This document shows, one piece after another, positions 6,365 to 64,000 of a DNA stretch of 64,000 nt. Origin of the DNA: Candidatus Bathyarchaeota archaeon (GTDB lineage Archaea > Thermoproteota > Bathyarchaeia > TCS64 > PIYN01); assembly GCA_003601775.1 (NCBI GenBank), contig PIYN01000002.1, forward strand, positions 203-64,202, given 5' to 3'. Position numbers and translations under genes: made by a program. Numbering within the stretch: position 1 is the first letter of the stretch; every line of letters starts with the position of its first letter. The notes under the pieces are model-generated. The model had not been told where the DNA came from. It saw only the letters and a program-made list of their open reading frames with translations, and searched no databases.

Positions 6365-7102
6365 ATGTTCCTGGCCTGGGGGATCACTGGTGCGGGGCAC
6401 TTCCTCCTCGAGACCTTCACCCTGATGGAGGAGGTGGCGAGACGGGGGGACGTGAAGGTGACGACCTACCTGACGAGGGCGGGGGAGGAGGTCGTGAAGA
6501 TCTACGGGCTCTGGGACCGCCTTAGGGAGATCTCCGACGGCGGCTACTACTCCGAGATCCTCAGGGAGAAGGAGGAGGGTGCGAGCTCACCCTCGGCCGG
6601 GCGCCTGGCGAGGGGCGTCTACAGGGCGCTCATAGTCTCCCCCGCCTCAGCCAACACCGTCGCGAAGATCAGGGTCGGCATCGCCGATACCCTGGTGACG
6701 AACGCCGTCGCCCAGGCCCTGAAGTCTGGGACGCCCGTGCTGATCCTCCCGACGGACCAGGCCCTGGAGGAGTTCGAGACCACGCTGCCGCATAGGGTTG
6801 ATAGGGAGGTCTGTAGGGGGTGTAGGCCCTGCCCAGCGAGGGAGGTATGTCCCACTGATGCCTTAAGGAGGGTGGAGGGTCGGATGAGGATTCACCTCCC
6901 CCTCTGTGTGGGCTGCGGTCTATGCCTGGAGGCCTGCCCCTATGGGGCGATAAGGTTTGGGGAGAGGATAAGGGTGAGGGCGAGGGGGGTGGATGTGGAG
7001 AATGTGGAGTCCCTGAGGAGGATGGAGGGCCTGAAGGTCGCCTCCGACCCCGAGGAGCTCAGAGAGGCCATAGAGGAACTCCTGGGAGGTTCCAGCCCTT
7101 GA
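6365..7102 (+). CDS. dmrX: archaeal dihydromethanopterin reductase-like flavoprotein (AfpA/DmrX family) with two [4Fe-4S] ferredoxin motifs
   Basis: HFCD/AfpA flavoprotein signature (WGITGAGH, SPASANTVAKI) plus two CxxCxxCxxxCP motifs (CRGCRPCPAREVCP; CVGCGLCLEACP), as in M. mazei DmrX. Confidence 0.6.
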   Translation: MFLAWGITGAGHFLLETFTLMEEVARRGDVKVTTYLTRAGEEVVKIYGLWDRLREISDGGYYSEILREKEEGASSPSAGRLARGVYRALIVSPASANTVAKIRVGIADTLVTNAVAQALKSGTPVLILPTDQALEEFETTLPHRVDREVCRGCRPCPAREVCPTDALRRVEGRMRIHLPLCVGCGLCLEACPYGAIRFGERIRVRARGVDVENVESLRRMEGLKVASDPEELREAIEELLGGSSP

Positions 7103-7125: not shown

Positions 7126-8688
7126 ATGGCCAAGGAGATGGTGGAGCGCTACGCGAGGGTGAACGGCGTCGAGGCCACGGTCCTCGCCCTCCCCGTCTCC
7201 GTAGCCGCCTTCCTCACCCCCGATCTCGTCGCGGAGAGGCTGAGAGGGAGGGACCTGAGCGGATACGACCTCATCCTCCTCCCAGGGGCCATGAAGGGGG
7301 ATGTCTCAGCTGTTGAGGAGGCTACGGGAGTCCCCACCTTCAAGGGGCCCCTCCACGCAGCAGACCTCCCCTTAGTCCTAAGCCTCCTCGGCGAGATCGA
7401 GCTCTCGAAGACCCGTCCAGCCTCGGAGCTGATCAGGGGAAGACTGAGGAAACGCGCCCTCAAGGAAATAGAGTCGGCCGAGAGGGAGTGGAGGAGACTC
7501 CTCGAGGAGGGAGGGGGGTTCACCCTGGGGAAGGGGGCCGGTAGGGTAGCCGTGGGACGGCTGCTCCCGATGCGCGTAGTGGCGGAGATCGTGGACGCCC
7601 CGAGGCTCACGGATAGAGAAATAGAGCGGAGGGCCATCTACTACGCGGAGTCGGGCGCCGATATAATCGACGTGGGGATGATGGCGGGGAGGCCCAGGCC
7701 AGGGGAGGTGCGGAGGATCCTCGAGGCCGTGAGGAGCGCCGTCGAAAAGCCCGTCAGCATAGACACCCTCGACCCCTCGGAGATAAGGGCCGCCGTGAAG
7801 GCGGAGGTGGACCTCGTCCTGAGCTTAGACAGGGGGAATATGGAGGAGGTTGCACCCCTCCTCCAGGACATCCCCGTCGTCGTGATACCGACGGATGTCA
7901 GAAGAGGGGAGCTACCCCGGAGGGCTGAAGAACGCGTGAGGCGGTTGGAGAAGAACATAGAGCAGGCCCGGGAGATGGGGGTCGAGAAGGTCGTCGCGGA
8001 CCCGATATTGGAGCCCGCCCTGACCCCGGGCGTCTTCGAGTCCCTCAGGGCCTACCACCTCTTCGCCGAGAGGAACCCAAGGATCCCCCTCCTCTTCGGC
8101 GTGGGGAACGTGACCGAGCTGATGGACATCGACTCCGTGGGCGTGAACGGACTACTCGCGGCGATGGCCGCGGAGCTCGGCGTGAGCCTCCTCTTCACGC
8201 CCGAGCATAGCGACAAGGCGAGGGGGAGCGTGAGGGAGCTCGCCACGGCGTCAAGGATGATGTTCCTCGCGAAGAGGAGGAGGACAACCCCCAAGGACCT
8301 CGGCATCGACCTCCTCATCCTCAAGGATAAGAGGTTCAGGGAGGAAGGTTATAAGAGGAGCATCGAGGAGGGCGTTGAGGTCCTGGAGCCCGAGGAGGTG
8401 GAGGGCTACCAGGAGGATGAGAGGGGCTGGTTCAGGATACTCCTCGACAGGGAGGAGGGGAAGATCGTCCTCCTCCATTTCCCCAGAGGAGGGAAGAGGC
8501 CGGACCTCATATTGAAGGGCAGGAAGGCAAGGCCCCTATACATCGCAGCCATCAAGAGGGGATTGGTCTCGAGGCTCGACCATGCGGCCTACCTCGGGAG
8601 GGAGCTGGGGAAGGCGGAGGTCGCCCTCTCCACGGGGAAGGCCTATGTGGAGGATGAACCCCTCTTCCTCCGCTTCCACTCGGCGTAG
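7126..8688 (+). CDS. mptH: dihydropteroate synthase-like pterin-binding protein (MptH-type)
   Basis: Pterin-binding barrel motifs ([21 protein letters not shown]) preceded by an N-terminal domain, as in the long archaeal DHPS homologs used for H4MPT. An in-frame TTG at 7099 overlapping the upstream stop is an alternative start. The ORF-track start at 6922 is rejected. Confidence 0.6.
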
Positions 8689-9758: not shown

Positions 9759-11896
9759 CTCCTCGATAAGGTGATCTTCACATCCACCGCTATACAGCCC
9801 CTCCCTTCCTCATAGGCGAACAGGGGATTTATATCCATCTCCAGGATCTCGGGGAAGTCTGTCACCAGCTGGCTCACCCTGAGGATGATATTCAGGAGGG
9901 CGTTGATATCCGAGGGTTTCTCCCCCCGCACACCCTTGAGTAGGGTGTAGGCCTTCGTCTCCTCGACCATACCTCGAGCCTCCTCCAGGGACAACGGGGC
10001 CAGCCTAAAGGAGACGTCCCTCAGGAAGTTGACGTAGATGCCCCCGAGGCCGAACATGATGAGCGGCCCGAACTGGGGGTCCCTGCTGACACCCACGATG
10101 AGCTCCCTCCCCTGGGGGACCATCTTCATCACCAAGACACCGTATATCTGGGCCCTCGGCATGTACCGGGAGACCCGGGTGACGATCGACCTATAGGCCT
10201 CCCTGACCTCCTCCGGCGAACTGATATTGAGGACGATGCCCCCGACATCTGACTTATGGAGGATCTCAGGGGAGACGACCTTCAGGACGACGGGGTAGCC
10301 TATCTCCTCGGCAGCACGCATAGCCTCCTCCATGCTCGCCGCCATCCTCATGAGGGGGACGTGGATCCCATAGGCCCTGGCCACCCCCGCGGCCTCGTGG
10401 GGGAGGAGGACGACCCTCCCCTCCCTCCTCGCGGCCTCGACGATCTCACGGACCGCAGCTTTATCGACGTCGTAGAAGAACTCAGGCCTACTCTCAGGGC
10501 GCTCCAGGAACTCGGCATACTCTATGAGAGCCGCCAGCGCCCTAACGGCCTTCTCCGGGAAGTTGAAGCAGGGGATCCCATGATCTATGAGGTACCTGGA
10601 GGCCTCCTCCACGCTCTCCCCACCCATGAAGACGGCGAGGACGGGCTTATCCCTCCCCCCGCTGAGCTCCACGATGGCCTTAGCGGTCTCCACGCTCTCC
10701 GTCATCGCCTGGGGGGTGAGGATGACGAGGAGGGAGCTCACAGAGGGGTCATCGAGGACCTTCTCTATCGCTGTCCTGTACCTCTCCGCCCTGGCGTCCC
10801 CCAGGATGTCTACGGGGTTGTGGACGCTGGAGGCTGGGGGGAGCCCCTCCCTGAGCCCCTTGAGGGTCTCCGCGGAGAGGCGGGCGAGCTTCACGCCGAG
10901 CGCCTCACACATATCGGTCGCCAAGATCCCGGGTCCACCTGCATTCGTCACAATCGCGACGCTGTTTCCCCTCGGCAGCGGCTGGGTGCTGAAGGCGATG
11001 GCATAGTCGAAGAGCTCCTCCACACTCCGCGCCATGATGACCCCCGACTGCTTGAACGCAGTCTTGTAGGCCGTGAAGCTGCCCACCATCGCCCCCGTGT
11101 GGCTCCCCGCGGCCCTGGCGCCCGCCGTGGAGGTCCCGCCCTTGAGGACGATGAGGGGCTTCTTCCTTACAACTTCCCTCGCAACCCGGACGAAACGCTC
11201 CCCCTCCTCTATGGACTCCACGTAGAGGAGGATGACCCTGACCTCCGGGTCCTCGGCCATCGCCTCTATGAAGTCTATCTCATTCAAGTCCGCCTTATTC
11301 CCCAGGCTCACGAAGCTGGCGAAGCCTATATCCTCCCTCAGGACCCAGTCCAGGACGGCCGTCCCCAGGGCGCCGCTCTGGGAGATGAAGCCGATATTCC
11401 CCTTCCTGGGCATGGAGGCGGCGAAGCTGAGGTTCAGGGGGGTGTGAGTATCGATCACGCCGAGGCAGTTGGGGCCCTGCATCCTCATCCCGTAGCGTCT
11501 GCAGACCTCGAGGAGCTGCCTCTCCAGGGCGGCGCCCTCCACCCCAGTCTCCTTGAAGCCCGCGGAGATCACGATGACGGCCTTCACACCCTTCTCCCCG
11601 CAGGCCTTAACGACGTCAAGGACCAACGGCGCCGGGATCGCTATGACGGCGAGGTCGACCTCGTCGGGGATCTCCCTCACATCGCTGAAGCACCTCAGGC
11701 CCAGGATCTCCTTCGCCTTCGGGTTGACGGGGTAGACCTTCCCCGGGAACCCTGTATCGATCAAGTTCCTGACGAGGATATGCCCCACCTTCCCAGGGTT
11801 CCGGGAGGCCCCGATCACGGCCACGGACCTGGGGCGGAAGATGGCGCTGAGGATGGTCGAGGGGGACCTCGCCTCAAGTCGGGAAGGGGGGACCAT
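9755..11896 (-). CDS. acd: acetyl-CoA synthetase (ADP-forming), fused alpha-beta subunits (NDP-forming acyl-CoA synthetase)
   Basis: CoA-binding start (RSVAVIGASRNPGKVG), succinyl-CoA-synthetase-like central domains, catalytic His region (GSHTGAM) and a C-terminal ATP-grasp. The ATG at 11896 is preferred over the ORF-track start at 12271, whose first 125 aa lack homology. Confidence 0.8.
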   Translation of the reverse strand: MVPPSRLEARSPSTILSAIFRPRSVAVIGASRNPGKVGHILVRNLIDTGFPGKVYPVNPKAKEILGLRCFSDVREIPDEVDLAVIAIPAPLVLDVVKACGEKGVKAVIVISAGFKETGVEGAALERQLLEVCRRYGMRMQGPNCLGVIDTHTPLNLSFAASMPRKGNIGFISQSGALGTAVLDWVLREDIGFASFVSLGNKADLNEIDFIEAMAEDPEVRVILLYVESIEEGERFVRVAREVVRKKPLIVLKGGTSTAGARAAGSHTGAMVGSFTAYKTAFKQSGVIMARSVEELFDYAIAFSTQPLPRGNSVAIVTNAGGPGILATDMCEALGVKLARLSAETLKGLREGLPPASSVHNPVDILGDARAERYRTAIEKVLDDPSVSSLLVILTPQAMTESVETAKAIVELSGGRDKPVLAVFMGGESVEEASRYLIDHGIPCFNFPEKAVRALAALIEYAEFLERPESRPEFFYDVDKAAVREIVEAARREGRVVLLPHEAAGVARAYGIHVPLMRMAASMEEAMRAAEEIGYPVVLKVVSPEILHKSDVGGIVLNISSPEEVREAYRSIVTRVSRYMPRAQIYGVLVMKMVPQGRELIVGVSRDPQFGPLIMFGLGGIYVNFLRDVSFRLAPLSLEEARGMVEETKAYTLLKGVRGEKPSDINALLNIILRVSQLVTDFPEILEMDINPLFAYEEGRGCIAVDVKITLSRS

Positions 11897-12138
11897 AGGG
11901 GCTTCAAGTATCAAGGAACCCTCCAAGATAAAAACCTTAATCCTCCCGGGCCGGAGGGACAGGTTCTCTGTCCAAGGCTTCGAAACTACATTTTCTATAA
12001 GGCGTCGATATTTTGGGAGGTAGGAGACCCTTGAAAAGGGCTCCTTCACCCTGAAATAGACAGGATTAATGACTGAAATTCCCTCCTCATTCATCGGGTG
12101 GAGGAGGGTTGGACGATCTTTATGTCCATGTAACTGGC

Positions 12139-13110
12139 TCAGGGAGTTGGCTCCCTCAACAGGGCCCTTATGGTCTCCCGTATGGCCTCCCGGCTGTTGT
12201 ATCGGGGCCTCCAGCCCAGGTTCCTCAGCCTCCTCGTGTCCAACGCCATGTATTTCACATCCCCCTTCCATCCCCTCCCCCCCTCGACGCCCCCCGTGAA
12301 GCAGAATTGGACGTCCCTGAGGCCCATCTCCTCCACGACCATCTCGGCTATCGTCCTCACGTCCACACGGTCCTCAGAACCTATGTTGAAGATCTCGACC
12401 CTCCCCTCTGACCTCTCAAGGCCGAGGAGCATCCCCTCCACACAGTCCTCCACGTAGAGGTAGGACTTCGACTGGGTGCCGTCCCCGAGGATCTCCAACT
12501 CCCCCGGGTTCCTCCGTAGTTTCTCGATGAAGTCGTGGACCACTCCGTGATGACTCCTGGGACCCACGACGTTCGCCAGCCTATAGATGACGGCCCTGAA
12601 GCCGTAGAGGTGGGCGTAGGCGGATATGAGGGCCTCCGAGGCGAGCTTCGAGGCTCCGTAGATGGAGATGGGCTTCAAGGGGGCATAATCCTCGGGGGTT
12701 GGGAGGGTCTCTGCTTCCCCATAGACCGTGGAGGAGGAGGTGAAGACGAGGGCCTTGACGCCACGGCTCAACCTAACCGCCTCGAGGAGGTTGTAGGTGG
12801 CGACGATGTTCTGCTTGAAGTGGGCCTCTGGCCTCGCGTATGAGATGCGGATCTCCGGGTTCGCGGCGAGGTGGTAGACGACCTCACTCCCCTCCACGAC
12901 CCTCCTCACCTCCTCCGGGTCCAGTAGGTCGCCTTCCACAAACTCGAAGCGGGGGTCGCTCATCCATCCCCTAAGATTCTCCAACCTCCCAGAGGTCAGG
13001 TTATCCAGGACCCTGACCCTCACACCCCGTCTCATCAGGGCATCGACCAGATGGCTGCCTATGAAGCCCGCCCCGCCGGTGACGAGATGAAACCCTTGGA
13101 GATCCCCCAT
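12139..13110 (-). CDS. NAD-dependent nucleotide-sugar epimerase/dehydratase (SDR family, GalE/UXS-like)
   Basis: Rossmann motif VTGGAGFIGSHLV and the extended-SDR catalytic motif YGASKLASE (YxxxK). Confidence 0.7.
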   Translation of the reverse strand: MGDLQGFHLVTGGAGFIGSHLVDALMRRGVRVRVLDNLTSGRLENLRGWMSDPRFEFVEGDLLDPEEVRRVVEGSEVVYHLAANPEIRISYARPEAHFKQNIVATYNLLEAVRLSRGVKALVFTSSSTVYGEAETLPTPEDYAPLKPISIYGASKLASEALISAYAHLYGFRAVIYRLANVVGPRSHHGVVHDFIEKLRRNPGELEILGDGTQSKSYLYVEDCVEGMLLGLERSEGRVEIFNIGSEDRVDVRTIAEMVVEEMGLRDVQFCFTGGVEGGRGWKGDVKYMALDTRRLRNLGWRPRYNSREAIRETIRALLREPTP

Positions 13111-13120
13111 CCCAATCCCC

Positions 13121-14203
13121 CTAAGAGCCTCTGATGGATGTGAAATATCTGAAGGAGGAGAGGCCGAGGATCATGGCCCCGAAGGCTATGAGGACGAGGA
13201 GGAACATCGCGGACGTGATGAAGCCGAGGACGAACCCCCGGAGGAGGAGCCCCACGGTGATGAGGAAGCCGCCCCAGGCGATGTCTGAAACTCCTCGACC
13301 CCTATAGCCGAGGGCCACGCTCACCCCCGCGAGGAGGAGGTGCCAGAGGCCCATGAGGAGGAGGAATTGGAAGAGCGGCCACAGGATTGAGGCGGAGGGC
13401 ATAATTGGGGGCCCCCACGCCTCCCATCTCCTCAGGTAATCCACCACCTCCGAGGGGAGGCTCGGGTAGAGGAGTAAGATCACCGAGAGGGCTATGAGGA
13501 AGGCGCCGAAGTTGGCCAGCCCGAAGGAGATTCCCCTCTTCTCCTTGGGGGTCTCCCTGACCCTGGGGGGTGTATCTGAGGTTTCAGGAGGGGGACTGTT
13601 CCGGGGAGGGGGACGCCATCGCCTCCCCCTCCTCACGATGACCATCGTCTCGGCCACCTGATCCATGAACCTCTGCCTGGGATCACCGGCCGTGGCCAGG
13701 CCGAGGATCACGTCAAGGAGGAGGAAGGCCCAGAAGACCTTGCTCAGGTTCCTTATGAAGGCAGCGGTCAGGGTCGGTGGCCCGCCCTCCGCCGTGACGA
13801 CCTCCAGGTCCATGGCCTTCTTCCCGAAGGTGTAGCCGTAACTGCTCTCCATGAAGGAGAAGTAGAGGAGGTAGACGAGCCCTGTGATGGAGGGGAACTT
13901 GAAGAGCCTGTTCCACTGACCCATCCAGTTTAGGAAGCCCGTGAAGATGAGGGGGAAGGTCAGGACGGCGAAGAGGACGATAGTGAAGACGAAGACCAGG
14001 AGGGAGTCTATGAAGTAGGCGATGACCCTCCTCGCCCAATACCTCTGGATCCGCCGATCGGAGGCGAGGCGCCCGAAGCCCGCCTCAGGCCTCCACTGTA
14101 CCCCTACCCCCCTCTTGAGGGCTACTCCACAGTTAGGACAGAACCGAGCGTCCTCAGGGACCTCTATACCACAGTTAGGACAGTAGGGCATATCGGCAAT
14201 CAC
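13121..14203 (-). CDS. zinc-ribbon + RDD-family membrane protein
   Basis: N-terminal double zinc ribbon (CPNCG...CPNCG) followed by an RDD-like membrane region (RRVIAYFIDSLLVFVF) and further TM helices. Confidence 0.5.
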   Translation of the reverse strand: MIADMPYCPNCGIEVPEDARFCPNCGVALKRGVGVQWRPEAGFGRLASDRRIQRYWARRVIAYFIDSLLVFVFTIVLFAVLTFPLIFTGFLNWMGQWNRLFKFPSITGLVYLLYFSFMESSYGYTFGKKAMDLEVVTAEGGPPTLTAAFIRNLSKVFWAFLLLDVILGLATAGDPRQRFMDQVAETMVIVRRGRRWRPPPRNSPPPETSDTPPRVRETPKEKRGISFGLANFGAFLIALSVILLLYPSLPSEVVDYLRRWEAWGPPIMPSASILWPLFQFLLLMGLWHLLLAGVSVALGYRGRGVSDIAWGGFLITVGLLLRGFVLGFITSAMFLLVLIAFGAMILGLSSFRYFTSIRGS

Positions 14204-59847: not shown

Positions 59848-61008
59848 TCATCCCAGACTCTCCTTCTCGAAGTAGTAGGAGAAGGCCTTATGTGCCCTAT
59901 AGATCACCAGGACGAGGACAGCCGTCGTCACCAGGCAGGCGATGGTCATCAGGACCAGGGGGGAGTAGAGGGTCACGGTCCTACTCGGCTCCAAGAGGAC
60001 GTTAGCGGACTCTATGAGGATGAACCTTAGCCAGAAGGAGATGGCGATGCCGACGATGTTCCTCCACATCCTGATATCTCGACCCAGGAAGGAGTAGATC
60101 GTCTCTCCCACGAGGGAGAAGATGACCCCGATGATTATGAGGTCGGTCCCCCTTAGAAGGAAGTAACCGCTCAACTTTGGGGTCATTCCAATCCAATACC
60201 AGGGGTCCACCCAGATAGGAGGGCCAGCAGCTACGTTGCTGGCTGCGTAGGTACCGCCGAGATAACAGCCGATGATTATTAGACCTAAGCCTATGGCCCT
60301 CGTCGTGATCTTCAGCTGCTCCTCGGGGGCTGGGAGCTTCACTATGAGAGATGCTATCTTCTCATCCCATCCAAAGCCCTTTATGCAGAGCGCCCCGCCG
60401 AGGATGAAGAGAGTGACCATCCCAGCGTTCTGCAGCTGGTTGAAGATCCATAGGACCCCGATCACCATTAGGAGTATCCCTGGGACACCGAGGCTGAACT
60501 TGGAGTACCTCGGGTCATTCACTAACATCCTTCCGTAGCGGAGGAACACCGCCCATGTCTCCTCGAGTCTCTCACTGTGCTTCACGACGACGTGCCTCAA
60601 CGAGAGGATGGGGACCCTGGACTGGATTATGGGGATGATGGATTCGTCTGAGTATCCATCGGAGACGAGTATGACGCTGTCCGCGGGGAAGATCTTCAAT
60701 ACCTCGTTGAGCTCCTGAGTTATCCTCCTATCCGCCTCCAAGCCACCGGCCTCAGAGCCGGCGATCGTCGCCACCTCATACTCGTCTCCGGAGTCCTCGG
60801 TGCTCAACGTGTCCAGGGTCTTGACCGCCGCGAACATGGCGTTCGCATCCGCCTCCTCCGGGTCCTCCAGGGCCAACTTCGTCGCGGCCTCGATGTTCGC
60901 CTCCCTACCTATGATCGGCGTGGGGACCCCTGCCTTGACCACTATATCTGCATCGCTGTCCACGCAGAGAATGAGCACCCTCTCTCCTCTAACCCCCTCA
61001 CCCGACAT
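59848..61008 (-). CDS. DUF373-family archaeal membrane protein
   Basis: Cytoplasmic N-domain (VLILCVDSDADI... VILVSDGYSDE) followed by about 7 TM helices. Confidence 0.45.
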   Translation of the reverse strand: MSGEGVRGERVLILCVDSDADIVVKAGVPTPIIGREANIEAATKLALEDPEEADANAMFAAVKTLDTLSTEDSGDEYEVATIAGSEAGGLEADRRITQELNEVLKIFPADSVILVSDGYSDESIIPIIQSRVPILSLRHVVVKHSERLEETWAVFLRYGRMLVNDPRYSKFSLGVPGILLMVIGVLWIFNQLQNAGMVTLFILGGALCIKGFGWDEKIASLIVKLPAPEEQLKITTRAIGLGLIIIGCYLGGTYAASNVAAGPPIWVDPWYWIGMTPKLSGYFLLRGTDLIIIGVIFSLVGETIYSFLGRDIRMWRNIVGIAISFWLRFILIESANVLLEPSRTVTLYSPLVLMTIACLVTTAVLVLVIYRAHKAFSYYFEKESLG

Positions 61009-61045
61009 AGCGGTCTCTCTATAAATGTCTGCACCAAAAGACTAT

Positions 61046-61978
61046 TTATATATCCAGTTTGAGGGCTTCCTTCAGCCCCTTATATCTGTTCCTGATGGTG
61101 ACCTCCGTGACACCGGCCGCATCGGCGATCATCTTCTGCGTCCTCTTCTCGTCATTCAGGACACAGGCGATGTAGAGGGCCGCGGCTGCGAGGCCCATGG
61201 GGTCCTTCCCCGCAGTCTTCCTGAGCGCCCCCGCCCTCCTGAGTATCTCCACAGCCTTCTGCTGCGTCCTCTCCCCAACCCCCACCTTCGCGGCGATCTT
61301 GGGAATCCTCTCCTCGGCCCCAGGGATCGGCATCCTTAGATCCAGCTCCCGGACCAGAAGCCTATAGCACCTCGCGATATCCTTCTTATCTATGGGACTA
61401 TGGGCGGCGACCTCCTTCAGCGTCCTGGGAGTGCGCGTCAGACGGCAGGCGGCATAGAGGGCCGCTGCGGTTATCGCAGCGATGGAGCGCCCCCTCACCA
61501 GACCCTTATCCAGGGCCTTCCGGTATATGATCGCCGCTCGCTCCTTGATCGTGGGGGGTATATGGAGTTTATCCGTGAGCCTATCGAGCTCGGCCATGGC
61601 CTGGGCCAAGTTCCTGTCGACGGAGGAGTGAACCCTCGACCTGATCTGCCACTTCCTCAGCCTGAGCATCTGGAGCTTCGTCTTGAGCGGCAGCTTCCTT
61701 CCCAGGGCGTCCCTTCCGACCCTCCCGATGACGGTCGTCAGTCCCTTATCGTGGACGGAGAAGGAGAGTGGGACACCCACCCGGCTCCTGCTCTCCTTCT
61801 CACTCTGGGTGAAGGCCCTCCACTCGGGCCCCTTATTTATGATGGACTCACTGATGACCAGACCACAATCTCCACAGATGATCTCGCCTGATTCCTCATC
61901 ATGAATAAGGTTCTCACTACCACACTCGGGGCAACGGTCGATATTCCCCCAATCCTCCTTCTTCTTCAACCTACTCAC
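61046..61978 (-). CDS. tfb: transcription initiation factor IIB (TFB), paralog 2
   Basis: Zinc ribbon (CPECGS...CGDCG), GPEWRAF and two cyclin folds. Distinct from paralog 1 in its N-terminus and linker. Confidence 0.85.
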   Translation of the reverse strand: MSRLKKKEDWGNIDRCPECGSENLIHDEESGEIICGDCGLVISESIINKGPEWRAFTQSEKESRSRVGVPLSFSVHDKGLTTVIGRVGRDALGRKLPLKTKLQMLRLRKWQIRSRVHSSVDRNLAQAMAELDRLTDKLHIPPTIKERAAIIYRKALDKGLVRGRSIAAITAAALYAACRLTRTPRTLKEVAAHSPIDKKDIARCYRLLVRELDLRMPIPGAEERIPKIAAKVGVGERTQQKAVEILRRAGALRKTAGKDPMGLAAAALYIACVLNDEKRTQKMIADAAGVTEVTIRNRYKGLKEALKLDI

Positions 61979-62212
61979 CTCTCTATATTCGCCCCATCAC
62001 AGAAACCACACCTCTTAGATTCAGAATAAACTGCTCATCTGGTAGCGCATAGAATTCCCTCACTCAATTATATATAAACTTTTCGGTTTCCTCATCCATT
62101 CTATGGTACATTTCATCAACTAAAAGAGAAGAGGGGGGGGACCTCTCCTCCACCCTTGTTGTTTAAAAGGGTAAAGCTAAAATCTCTAAAGGGAGAAGTG
62201 TAGGTTGGAGTT

Positions 62213-63313
62213 GTGGCGATGACCGCGTCGGAGAGCAGGATCAACTCGATACTCGGGGAGTTCCTCAGGGATCTGGTCAAGCAGGAGACGATCTCGGCCG
62301 TCGGGCTGTATGGGAGCTGGGGCAGATATGAGGCCTCCCCTCAGAGCGACGTCGACCTTCTCATCGTCGATAGGCGTAGCTTCGACTATAAGTACCTTGA
62401 GCTGCTGGACCATGGGGATCTTCTGATAGATATCCTCCGCATCCCAAGGAAGTGGATCGACGTGACCGTGAACCCCGAGGTGGATCATGTACTGTTTGAG
62501 TCCATCGTCCTCCACGACCCTGAGGGCGTCCTGGAGAGGGCGAGGGAGTGGGTCGCCGAGAACTACCGAACCCCTGGGAGGATAGACGTGAGAACGGAGC
62601 ATAATCTGATCCTCTCAGACTCCTACCTCAGCCGCGCAACCTCCGCGATGCTTCGAGGGGACTGGGAGAGCGCTGCCGTCTACGCGGCGTTCTCCATGGA
62701 TCCGGGGGTCGAGGTCCTGATAGATATCGCCTCCCTCCCTGTCACTGAGATCTCCTTCATCTGGAACCTCAGGAGGGCCTCTGAGGGCCTCGGATTGCTT
62801 GGCCTATATAGGACGTACCTCTCTACGGCGCGGCTCACAGGTCTGAAGGCCGATGATATCTCATCGAGTATCAAGGCCTTCGAGGAGTCCTGGAGGCTCG
62901 TCTCCTCCTTCATGGAGGAGAATAGGAGGGTCGTGGAGAGGGTCCACCGGAGGCTGAGGAATGAGATCTCCTATAGGACGACGTCAACCTACCTGAAGGC
63001 CGTGCTGGCCCGTGTCAGGAGGGTGGTGGAGGAGAGGAATTACATGGAGGCGGGGCACTACCTAAGGGGGAATCACCTGAGGCTGCTGGAGGAATTCTCA
63101 GAGATCTCAGCCAGGAAGCGGGGAAGAAAGTTTGATTATCCCTCTCTCTTCAAATCGCTGAGAGAGGACGAGGAGATCTATAGGCACGCCGTAGAGATCT
63201 TCGACCTCAGAGAACTGGACGAGGGGAAGGCAAAGGAGGCGATCGAATCGGCCCGGAGCGTCATAAGCTACATAAGGAGGAACCGAAAGGAGCTCATCGC
63301 AAAACACCTGTAG
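62213..63313 (+). CDS. Pol-beta superfamily nucleotidyltransferase fused to an about 250-aa helical C-terminal domain
   Basis: GS-x9-DxD motif (LYGSWGRYEASPQSDVDLLIVD). The C-terminal domain resembles the helical substrate-binding domains of KNTase/HEPN-like partners. Confidence 0.5.
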   Translation: MAMTASESRINSILGEFLRDLVKQETISAVGLYGSWGRYEASPQSDVDLLIVDRRSFDYKYLELLDHGDLLIDILRIPRKWIDVTVNPEVDHVLFESIVLHDPEGVLERAREWVAENYRTPGRIDVRTEHNLILSDSYLSRATSAMLRGDWESAAVYAAFSMDPGVEVLIDIASLPVTEISFIWNLRRASEGLGLLGLYRTYLSTARLTGLKADDISSSIKAFEESWRLVSSFMEENRRVVERVHRRLRNEISYRTTSTYLKAVLARVRRVVEERNYMEAGHYLRGNHLRLLEEFSEISARKRGRKFDYPSLFKSLREDEEIYRHAVEIFDLRELDEGKAKEAIESARSVISYIRRNRKELIAKHL

Positions 63314-63335
63314 AATATGGGAGCCCTTCGGTCAA

Positions 63336-63343
63336 ACTTATAA
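63336..63343 (+). promoter_or_regulatory. TATA box (TTATAAAT) about 29 nt upstream of the tRNA-Gln 5' end
   Basis: AT octamer at the canonical archaeal distance from the tRNA start. Confidence 0.35.
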
Positions 63344-63371
63344 ATTAGAGCTGAATAGAAATCTCATGGTC

Positions 63372-63466
63372 AGCCCGGTCGTCTAGCGGTCAAGGATGGG
63401 AGGCTCTGGAGGCCTATGGGCCGGGGAGACCTCCTGACGAGAGTTCGAATCTCTCCCGGGCTACCA
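63372..63466 (+). tRNA. tRNA-Gln (anticodon CUG) with an about 19-nt intron after position 37; genomically encoded CCA
   Basis: Manual fold: acceptor AGCCCGG/CCGGGCT (A1-U72, typical of archaeal tRNA-Gln) and a D-arm GUCU-AGCGGUCAA-GGAU with G18G19. The anticodon stem is GGAGG/CCUCC with loop CUCUGGA, interrupted by 63410-63428 (contains a GGCC-UAUG-GGCC hairpin). T-arm GAGAG-UUCGAAU-CUCUC, discriminator A, CCA, then a T-run. Confidence 0.55.
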
Positions 63467-63469
63467 TTG

Positions 63470-63960
63470 CTTATTGTTATTTTCATGTTTTTGGTGGGTG
63501 TTCTTTTGGGGTGGGGGTGTTGTGGAAGGGCCTGGGGTGTTTGGAGCGGGACTGATTTTAGAAGTAATACTTGGGCCCTTCCTGTTGATACTCCTCTTAG
63601 GGTGTTTGAAAAGTTTTATGGATTATCGCTTCTTCTGGTTTGGAGAGGTGTGGTCTGGGTGGGTGTAGATTAGGGTGAGGTTCTTGGTGGGAAGAGGTTG
63701 TTGAAGTTCGAGTTGGTCACTAGGATCCTGTCTTTCCACTGTAAGCGACGTGATGTGTTTGGGGAGATGGGTAGTTAGGGGGTTGGGGATATGGTTGGAA
63801 TGATGGTTATGGGCGGAGGGGTGGCCAGAAAAGTTTGGCTGGACTTTTAGAGGCCGTTGGGGAAACCCTCTTCCGCCGTATTTGGGATGAGGCTTGAGTA
63901 TATTAATTTTGTGTTTTAATTCCTAGGATGAGGTATTTGTCTATTAGTCTTCTGATGGCG
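63470..63960 (+). other. non-coding, strongly G+T-skewed, G-run-rich region downstream of tRNA-Gln
   Basis: About 500 nt with almost no C on the + strand and many GGG/GGGG tracts (GGTGGGTG, GGGGTGGGGG, GGGGGTTGGGG). No credible ORF on either strand. Confidence 0.4.
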
Positions 63961-64000
63961 GTTTCGATGAACTCCTCTCTGCTTGTGTAGCCTAGCTTCT

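Follow-up and report, generated by a model that had tools for sequence, protein, structure and literature searches.

What is the strongly strand-asymmetric DNA that follows a tRNA gene near the end of a 64,000-nucleotide stretch of the Candidatus Bathyarchaeota contig PIYN01000002.1 (assembly GCA_003601775.1, positions 203 to 64,202 of the forward strand; referred to here as the window), and does its composition reflect a function or a history? An initial annotation made from the letters of the window had described the DNA at 63470-64000 as a G- and T-dominated, G-tract-rich region and had offered a structured or antisense RNA, a G-quadruplex (G4)-forming regulatory or origin-proximal element, or the degraded boundary of an integrated element as possible explanations. 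We find that the region in question is a non-coding intergenic tract of 436 bp, located where the conserved chromosome gives way to a strain-variable gene island. We consider the chances about even that this tract is non-coding junction DNA at an integration and recombination hot spot formed by a tRNA-Gln gene. Within this reading, the specific descent of the tract from an integrase-bearing element is a tentative proposal, to which we attach a clearly lower likelihood.

The tract extends from 63467 to 63902. Its first base lies directly after the CCA of the tRNA, and its right limit is set by the stop codon (63903-63905) of a minus-strand gene encoding a ribbon-helix-helix (RHH) protein of 57 amino acids (aa), as established from a 98.7%-identical JGI contig (L083) and from other contigs reaching beyond the window. 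The last 98 nt of the window lie inside this RHH gene. The earlier impression that the window ends within a skewed region of uncertain extent was thus mistaken, as shown by the contigs that continue past 64000. In searches for attachment (att) sites and integrase genes and for counts of G4 motifs, we used the window plus a 1.5-kb extension based on L083, a total of 65.5 kb.

The tRNA itself (63372-63466, plus strand) was labeled tRNA-Pro(TGG) by ARAGORN. Outside a 19-nt insert located directly after position 37, its sequence is identical to that of the intron-less tRNA-Gln(CTG) of locus L003. It carries A1-U72 and U33, and the orthologous gene of L001, the nearest relative recovered, was called Gln(ctg) once introns were allowed. 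Based on these sequence comparisons, we identify the gene as tRNA-Gln(CUG) containing a 19-nt intron (approximately 63410-63428) at the canonical 37/38 position. The assignment to proline is ruled out by the identity to the L003 tRNA-Gln(CTG), the intron aside.

The skew of the tract is genuine and, in one respect, statistically extreme. Over 63470-63900, the plus strand is composed of 37% G, 35% T, 16.5% A, and 11.6% C, and G+T amounts to 70.8% for 63470-64000, 71.9% for 63470-63900, and 72% for the tract as delimited here. In 430-nt sliding windows across the 64 kb, G+T has its maximum of 72.3% at the tract, approximately 6 standard deviations (sd) above the mean (50.2%, sd 3.5%), and the next-best value is 59.8%. 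The tract contains the longest C-free run of the entire window (64 nt, 63750-63813; runner-up 38 nt) as well as its two longest stretches made up solely of G and T (22 and 17 nt). Its G+C content is 49%, compared to a genome average of 59%. The tract sequence was recovered in independent assemblies from several samples and is therefore no assembly or poly-G artefact.

What is anomalous is that one strand is depleted of C and, less strongly, of A; the G tracts are not anomalous. The strings quoted in the initial annotation are indeed present (GGTGGGTG at 63493 and 63658, GGGGTGGGGGTG at 63508, and GGGGGTTGGGGATATGGTTGG at 63778). However, runs of three or more G residues occur in the tract at 19-20 per 500 nt, a density that falls within the range found elsewhere in this window (59% G+C; up to 26 per 500 nt), so that a description as packed with runs of three to five G residues does not set the tract apart. 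Similarly, the terms "G+T-only" and "almost cytosine-free" convey a real and strong G+T excess but overstate it, given the above proportions of C and A and the presence of 10 C residues in each of two 50-nt sub-stretches (63567-63616 and 63717-63766). That such DNA is very unusual in a compact archaeal genome holds true for the depletion of C, but not for a propensity to form G-quadruplexes.

The conserved core of the chromosome ends approximately 15 nt past the tRNA, and a strain-variable island begins on the other side of the tract. The order of genes for SMC, ScpB, peptidase M24, a prenyltransferase, DUF373, TFIIB, a nucleotidyltransferase, and tRNA-Gln is common to the window and L001, whose nucleotidyltransferase is 67% identical to that of the window. 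L001 shares at least 10 kb upstream as well as the tRNA, and similarity is lost approximately 15 nt past the tRNA, after ATTATTGTTA. A nucleotidyltransferase gene followed directly by tRNA-Gln is found in 59 of 81 Bathyarchaeia loci (L001 and L003-L082). According to crude calling of open reading frames (ORFs), the first ORF downstream of tRNA-Gln falls into 36 clusters among 39 loci, and the island genes are absent from the tRNA-Gln flanks of the 81 other Bathyarchaeia loci. The G+C content at third codon positions (GC3) is 0.77-0.85 in the core genes and 0.50-0.55 in most of the island genes, and overall G+C is 59% in the core compared to 47% in the island, which is foreign-looking.

On the island side, the 33-kb contig L093 (43% G+C) encodes homologues of the RHH pair at the island edge (70% and 81% aa identity) and of a CARDB protein of the island. 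Similarity at the DNA level between the window and L093 starts with the RHH stop codon, and the place of the G/T-rich part of the tract is taken in L093 by protein-coding genes. Because this part is missing both from the left-flank relative L001 and from the right-flank relative L093, positions 63494-63807 are shared with neither. A tblastn search for a decayed homologue of the genes located to the left of RHH in L093 gave no match.

Other Bathyarchaeia carry integrase genes at the corresponding position. In four loci, a tyrosine integrase gene (Pfam Phage_integrase) lies on the minus strand against tRNA-Gln. The gene is intact in L013 (7213-8553), where its stop codon overlaps the 3' end of the tRNA, and in L011 (approximately 7220-8600). 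It is frameshifted in L036 (7308-8270), and in L017 (7767-7910) the last approximately 47 residues are recognizable; in both of these loci the frame reads into the tRNA 3' end. In L017, the approximately 210 nt up to the end of the contig lack the catalytic region expected of an intact gene. The attachment site attP appears to be located at the 3' end of the integrase gene in these loci. Over the integrase regions of L013, L036, and L017, the tRNA-sense strand contains 67-70% G+T. Several other strongly skewed stretches in Bathyarchaeia loci are genes with A+C-rich coding strands, and a strong keto/amino skew can therefore be a property of coding sequences in these archaea. Examples of low-GC genes with coding strands of 69-77% A+C are found in L075 (3565-3964), L026 (628-1027), L073 (6691-7090), and L066 (1860-2259), and such A+C-rich coding strands include the C-terminal halves of nucleotidyltransferase orthologues. 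In the tract itself, a 32-nt segment (63478-63509) resembles the region of the integrase C-terminal tail of the L036 integrated element at a similar offset from the tRNA, with 28 of 35 aligned columns identical and no similarity at the protein level (P = 0.003, based on 1000 dinucleotide shuffles of the first 120 nt).

On this basis, we propose that the tract is composed of a T-rich trailer of the tRNA, a G/T-rich core, and a stem-loop that would travel with the RHH module. The trailer (63467-63493, plus strand) contains runs of four and five T residues, and its first approximately 15 nt are the last bases alignable with L001. Oligo-T runs act as terminators in archaea, and the runs in the trailer are probably the terminator of the tRNA. 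The core (63494-63807, approximately 315 bp) is non-coding and poor in C (39% G, 35% T, 16% A, and 10% C). Its likeliest source would be the tRNA-proximal part of an element that integrated earlier and has since decayed heavily: a minus-strand integrase gene with an A+C-rich coding strand would decay into non-coding DNA that is G+T-rich on the tRNA-sense strand. The skew would then be a compositional relic, possibly strengthened by strand-biased mutation, and not a device. We infer that the core has no function of its own, and the remaining roles of the tract would be passive, namely spacing and the termination of two convergent transcription units. Among the explanations offered initially, the best fit is that of a degraded boundary left by an element that had integrated at the tRNA, in view of the break in synteny and GC3, the integrases of the relatives, and the 32-nt segment, although neither an integrase gene nor a duplicated att site was found in the 65.5 kb analyzed.

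Several observations weigh against this proposal. When the L013 and L011 integrases were used as tblastn queries, the minus strand gave no match, and no integrase was detected in the window, in L083, or in L001. The genes called in the approximately 6-kb island contig L088 do not include an integrase either. There is no direct repeat of the tRNA 3' end of at least 15 nt in the 65.5 kb, the far end of the island lying beyond all recovered contigs. With the exception of L036, local and global DNA alignments of the tract to the four integrase loci were no better than those of shuffled sequences, and BLOSUM62 alignments of its three minus-strand frames with the integrase tails gave P values of at least 0.12. 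Because no similarity extends beyond the 32-nt segment, the descent of the core from an integrase gene is inferred from its position, orientation, and composition. At 73% G+T, the skew is stronger here than in the integrase regions of the relatives, and it is driven by G, whereas that of the L017 remnant is driven by T. Moreover, the island genes encode cell-surface proteins, not proteins of mobile elements, and no relatives were found in viral contigs. Finally, the tract differs so little between the window and L083 (2 substitutions in 436 positions, 0.46%) that this low divergence could reflect constraint.

A comparison of the flanking regions places this last point into context. Between the window (59995-64000) and L083, third codon positions of the genes encoding TFIIB and the nucleotidyltransferase differ by 3.2-3.8%, and two intergenic regions to the left of the tRNA differ by 4.3-8.6%, whereas the RHH gene has 0 substitutions in 98 positions. 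Because the drop in divergence starts at the tRNA and includes the RHH gene, it looks like the result of more recent common ancestry of everything beyond the tRNA, and less like constraint acting on the tract. This suggests a recombination breakpoint at tRNA-Gln and an island edge that was shared more recently. Strain L089 is more divergent; its tract differs by approximately 2.4%, similar to its neighbors, and so gives no sign of a specific constraint. By contrast, the TasA-like genes of the island are strongly divergent between strains with RHH genes that are 97-99% identical, and similarity stops just after the signal peptide. Compared to L083, L086 and L087 have no substitutions and four single-base indels each, with TasA-like genes called at 241 versus 253 aa. 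These indels look like assembly noise, and we discounted them as evidence for non-coding status. In three assemblies (L088, L090, and L091), the contigs end within a few bases of one another at the equivalent of approximately 63847, which is inside the stem-loop. These shared ends could result from strain heterogeneity or from a drop in coverage at the G/T tract.

The tract is non-coding. This agrees with the initial annotation, which had noted no ORF of interest on either strand. Comparison of the window with L083 identified four single-base indels in 4 kb, all of them intergenic and three of them in the tract, and none within approximately 3.1 kb of coding sequence. One of the indels, of 1 nt at 63534, causes a frameshift in the only plus-strand ORFs of notable size, and the window and L083 would therefore encode different peptides. 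Stop codons occur in all six frames at approximately the frequency that we estimate from composition. The period-3 power of the tract (1.8) exceeds that of shuffled sequences (0.67 +/- 0.44; P = 0.03), and values for the neighboring gene are 3.9-6.9. No Pfam match was obtained for the six translated frames and ORFs of the tract. The longest stop-free minus-strand frame gave one HMMER match among 1.84 billion protein representatives, to a protein with a 5-fold repeat; we judged this match spurious, a short motif multiplied by the repeats. A long minus-strand gene with CA-rich codons, as an alternative source of the skew, was looked for beyond 64000 with a negative result, the neighbor being the 57-aa RHH gene.

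Homology searches at the nucleotide level likewise returned no relatives. We obtained no Rfam 15 match within 63467-63902 at E values of up to 10, only the tRNA reaching the threshold, and no DNA match to the tract in the 81 related loci, in phages or plasmids, or, by exact 21-mers, in IMG/VR. The core is thus without relatives outside near-identical strains. The tract contains no tandem repeats and no inverted repeats of 10 nt or more, and its direct repeats are short two-copy matches of the type expected by chance. The hexamer GGGTGT occurs five times compared to 0.96 expected, which is not significant by a maximum-count statistic (P = 0.21), and no k-mer is enriched in the tract after correction for multiple testing.

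The one segment of the tract that is conserved in a distant relative lies next to the RHH gene. Positions 63808-63884 (77 nt), just downstream of the RHH stop codon, can form a three-tier stem-loop, which belongs to the RHH module and not to the G/T-rich core according to the comparison with L093. Its fold z-scores for the minus and plus strands are -3.6 and -1.95, and those of the L093 counterpart (7487-7566) are -4.5 and -3.4, respectively. The loop GTTTGGCTGGAC is identical in L093, and five base pairs exhibit compensatory changes. A covariance model, R1, scored 98.7 bits on the stem-loop of the window and 75.7 bits on that of L093, both being the sequences from which the model was built. 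Elsewhere, R1 gave weak matches (E about 1) in L127, at 61-131 and 7030-7099. A pattern scan of IMG/VR yielded 33 matches, all attributable to chance and none with a nearby RHH gene or a similar hairpin, and relatives of RHH69 are absent from IMG/VR. The conservation of the stem-loop, from effectively two independent sequences, is suggestive. Lying between convergent transcription units, it probably serves as a terminator or 3'-end hairpin, and it may constitute a new type of regulatory or 3'-end motif in surface-protein operons controlled by RHH proteins. The strict conservation of the loop suggests, as judged from these two sequences, a specific binding site. Of the structured or antisense RNA proposed initially, this 77-nt element is the part that gains support, whereas the G/T-rich core has neither a family match nor a significant fold nor relatives. 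The stem-loop is also the one piece of the locus that might repay further work.

Could the remainder of the tract be transcribed for a purpose, or even translated? We regard it as unlikely that the tract encodes a non-coding RNA or forms a long 3' untranslated region, either as a G/U-rich plus-strand RNA ending at the stem-loop or as a C/A-rich extension of the minus-strand RHH mRNA, the latter unstructured and acting, for example, as a sponge or an anti-Shine-Dalgarno-like regulator. The compensatory changes in the stem-loop, G-U pairs that favor the plus strand, U-runs after the stem-loop, and the many GGAGG- and GGTG-like motifs of the tract are consistent with such an RNA, as is the minus-strand fold z-score of -2.6 for the whole tract. 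This z-score, however, derives from a few local hairpins, chiefly the stem-loop and a perfect 9-bp inverted repeat at 63522-63583 (GGAAGGGCC ... GGCCCTTCC, approximately 44 nt apart, present in both centroid folds), and the z-score of the plus strand is only -1.05. The G/T-rich core has no significant fold. Apart from the lack of an Rfam match, the core is missing in L093 despite the presence of both the RHH gene and the stem-loop, which follows a protein-coding gene there; indels between strains are tolerated; and no promoter was identified in the tract. It is very unlikely that the plus strand encodes small hydrophobic membrane peptides from G/T-rich codons (Val, Gly, Phe, Leu, Trp, and Cys). 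ORFs of 62-85 codons whose products resemble transmembrane segments do occur on the plus strand, but such ORFs are expected by chance because stop codons are rare in A-poor sequence. The frameshift at 63534 between strains that are 98.7% identical, the lack of a Pfam match, and the weak period-3 power largely refute this possibility. A combined version of the functional proposals, in which the tract is a lineage-specific regulatory module of the TasA-like fibre operon, a G/U-rich transcript or G4- or R-loop-forming DNA ending in the stem-loop with loop GTTTGGCTGGAC and coupling read-through of tRNA-Gln to RHH expression, has in our view a slim chance of being correct. If it were, the stem-loop would define a new cis-regulatory or small-RNA family of RHH-controlled surface-protein islands.

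The G-richness of the plus strand invites explanations at the level of DNA. In one of these, which we likewise deem improbable, read-through from the strongly transcribed tRNA-Gln gene would let the G-rich non-template strand and the G-rich RNA form R-loops or G-quadruplexes in the tract, so that the polymerase stalls and the convergent RHH gene is insulated. During such read-through the non-template strand would indeed be the G-rich one, the tract lies between convergent units and differs little between two strains, and it contains a canonical G4 motif on the plus strand (63761-63788; four tracts of at least three G residues, loops of 4, 6, and 2 nt) as well as a second motif with loops of up to 12 nt (63496-63530). 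Its mean G4Hunter score over 436 nt (0.69, 2.7 sd) is close to the window maximum of 0.71, which is attained by an overlapping stretch. Yet motifs with equal or higher scores are common throughout the 65.5 kb, with 20 canonical motifs (8 on the plus and 12 on the minus strand) and 29 G4Hunter peaks of at least 2.0, of which the tract holds one and two, respectively. The overall density at a G4Hunter threshold of 1.2, 7.8 per kb, matches the 7.9-8.4 per kb published for Guaymas Basin Bathyarchaeota of similar G+C content, which are among the most G4-rich archaea (PMC7565180). G4 motifs are thus no denser in the tract than elsewhere in the genome, and the G4Hunter prediction proposed at the outset as a check revealed no enrichment over the genomic background. 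In addition, the oligo-T runs at 63478-63492 already provide a terminator, and the tract is missing from every relative with the same tRNA and shows no enriched k-mer after correction. We see hardly any chance that the tract acts as a replication origin or as an element proximal to one. Its lower G+C content compared to the genome average, its G-strings, and a single CAGTGGAAA match to the core of the origin recognition box (ORB) could be cited in favor. However, the tract has no repeated ORB-like boxes or inverted repeats and no AT-rich unwinding stretch, there is no Orc1/Cdc6 gene among the island genes or the syntenic genes of L001 and L085 (SMC, ScpB, TFIIB, nucleotidyltransferase), and the tract is not conserved in relatives; the proposal of a G4-forming regulatory or origin element is effectively refuted as far as the origin is concerned. 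A different type of explanation, to which we give little credence as the sole cause, is mutation in place: in the absence of selection and at high temperature, the non-template strand downstream of an active tRNA gene would be deaminated (C to T and A to G). The sign of the skew, with G+T on the tRNA-sense strand, fits transcription-associated asymmetry, and elevated mutation in the flanks of tRNA genes has been documented in eukaryotes (PMC6130373). Across approximately 50 Bathyarchaeia species, we observed a small keto excess on the sense strand 50-500 nt after tRNA-Gln (GC skew and TA skew both +0.06 to +0.10; p = 0.0007 to 0.055 by bin), which is gone beyond 500 nt. This general effect corresponds to 53-55% keto bases and alone cannot explain the 73% observed here, the oligo-T terminators should end transcription within 30 nt, and by our arithmetic G is enriched beyond what deamination of an ancestor of average composition would yield. 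Convergent genes with A+C-rich coding strands can explain the general trend equally well. Strand-biased mutation may nevertheless add to the skew, and it does not conflict with a reading of the tract as junction DNA at an integration hot spot. Beyond the stem-loop, there is no positive support for any of the functional readings, that is, an insulator, an RNA, peptides, or an origin.

The last gene of the conserved core block (62213-63313, plus strand) encodes a Pol-beta-type nucleotidyltransferase of 366 aa, as identified by its ORF, by Pfam PF18765/PF01909, and by its homologues; the neighboring nucleotidyltransferase of the nearest genome representative is 48% identical. The RHH gene (63903-64000 in the window, minus strand, continuing to approximately 64076) is the first gene of the low-GC island. 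Its CopG-type product, known from its translation and from the full ORF in L083, matches Pfam RHH_1 (E = 3e-7), and an identical 57-aa RHH protein is present in a metagenome-assembled genome labeled "Candidatus Bathyarchaeota" at NCBI. Beyond it follow a divergent second RHH-like gene (69-73 aa), two Peptidase_M73 (TasA/camelysin-like) genes, an S24 (SipW-like) signal peptidase, DUF5305, and CARDB, and both TasA/camelysin-like proteins bear SipW-type signal peptides. The island spans at least 6 kb (L083 3907-5535; L088 1-6034; L092; L127). In L127, the entire approximately 7-kb TasA-like operon is duplicated in tandem. In L001, the 1.8 kb following tRNA-Gln (11350-13140) is low in G+C (33-40% near the tRNA) and contains mostly short ORFs, one of them of 132 codons. 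A 56-aa ORF of L001 with an HDD motif appeared terminase-like by eye and was dropped for lack of a Pfam or PHROG match.

If the tract is indeed junction DNA at a hot spot, it is itself of little importance, and the interest shifts to its surroundings. The tRNA-Gln(CUG) gene would then be a recurrent site of integration and recombination across Bathyarchaeia, where a series of decay is visible from an intact integrase through frameshifted and truncated ones to anonymous skewed DNA. In an archaeon that is uncultured and probably thermophilic, the tract would also delimit an island for TasA-like surface fibres that varies between strains. The locus also holds a caution for genome scans: at 59% G+C and approximately 8 G4Hunter hits per kb, G-tracts by themselves carry no signal, and a pronounced strand skew can be what remains of a gene once encoded by the opposite strand.

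Among known systems, tRNA-linked islands and decayed tyrosine-integrase elements are the closest in kind. As in these, the tract adjoins the 3' end of a tRNA gene at a sharp break in synteny, G+C, and GC3, the content downstream is variable, and in relatives the same position holds integrases of the same orientation in intact, frameshifted, or truncated form. Unlike in these, no integrase or att repeat was found here, the far end of the island not having been reached; the island carries surface-protein genes; and the extreme keto skew of this junction is not a recognized hallmark of such junctions. The island also resembles flexible ("replacement") islands in its low G+C content, its position beside a tRNA, and its TasA-like genes, which are divergent between strains with flanks (tRNA, tract, and RHH pair) that are 97-99% identical. 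That concept covers gene content, however, and leaves the skewed non-coding DNA at the island edge unexplained.

Compared to the putative quadruplex sequences described in archaea by use of G4Hunter (PMC7565180), the tract likewise has tracts of three to five G residues on one strand, one canonical motif, and peaks of approximately 2.0, but its density of strong motifs is at background, the tract is not conserved, and it is the lack of C, less so of A, that is unusual. Transcription-associated strand asymmetry (PMC6130373) has the same direction of skew and corresponds to the weak trend in approximately 50 Bathyarchaeia loci. The magnitude here is far larger, and the phenomenon was documented in eukaryotes. 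The stem-loop at 63808-63884 is similar to the 3'-end or terminator stem-loops between convergent genes in that it is predicted to be stable, has flanking U-runs in plus-strand orientation, and is kept together with the RHH gene in L093. Termination in archaea does not need hairpins. What sets this stem-loop apart from terminators is its strictly conserved loop, present in two independent examples. Set beside these systems, the tract is a genuine compositional oddity with a most likely ordinary cause, and there is a small chance that the stem-loop, with or without the tract, is a lineage-specific regulatory element.

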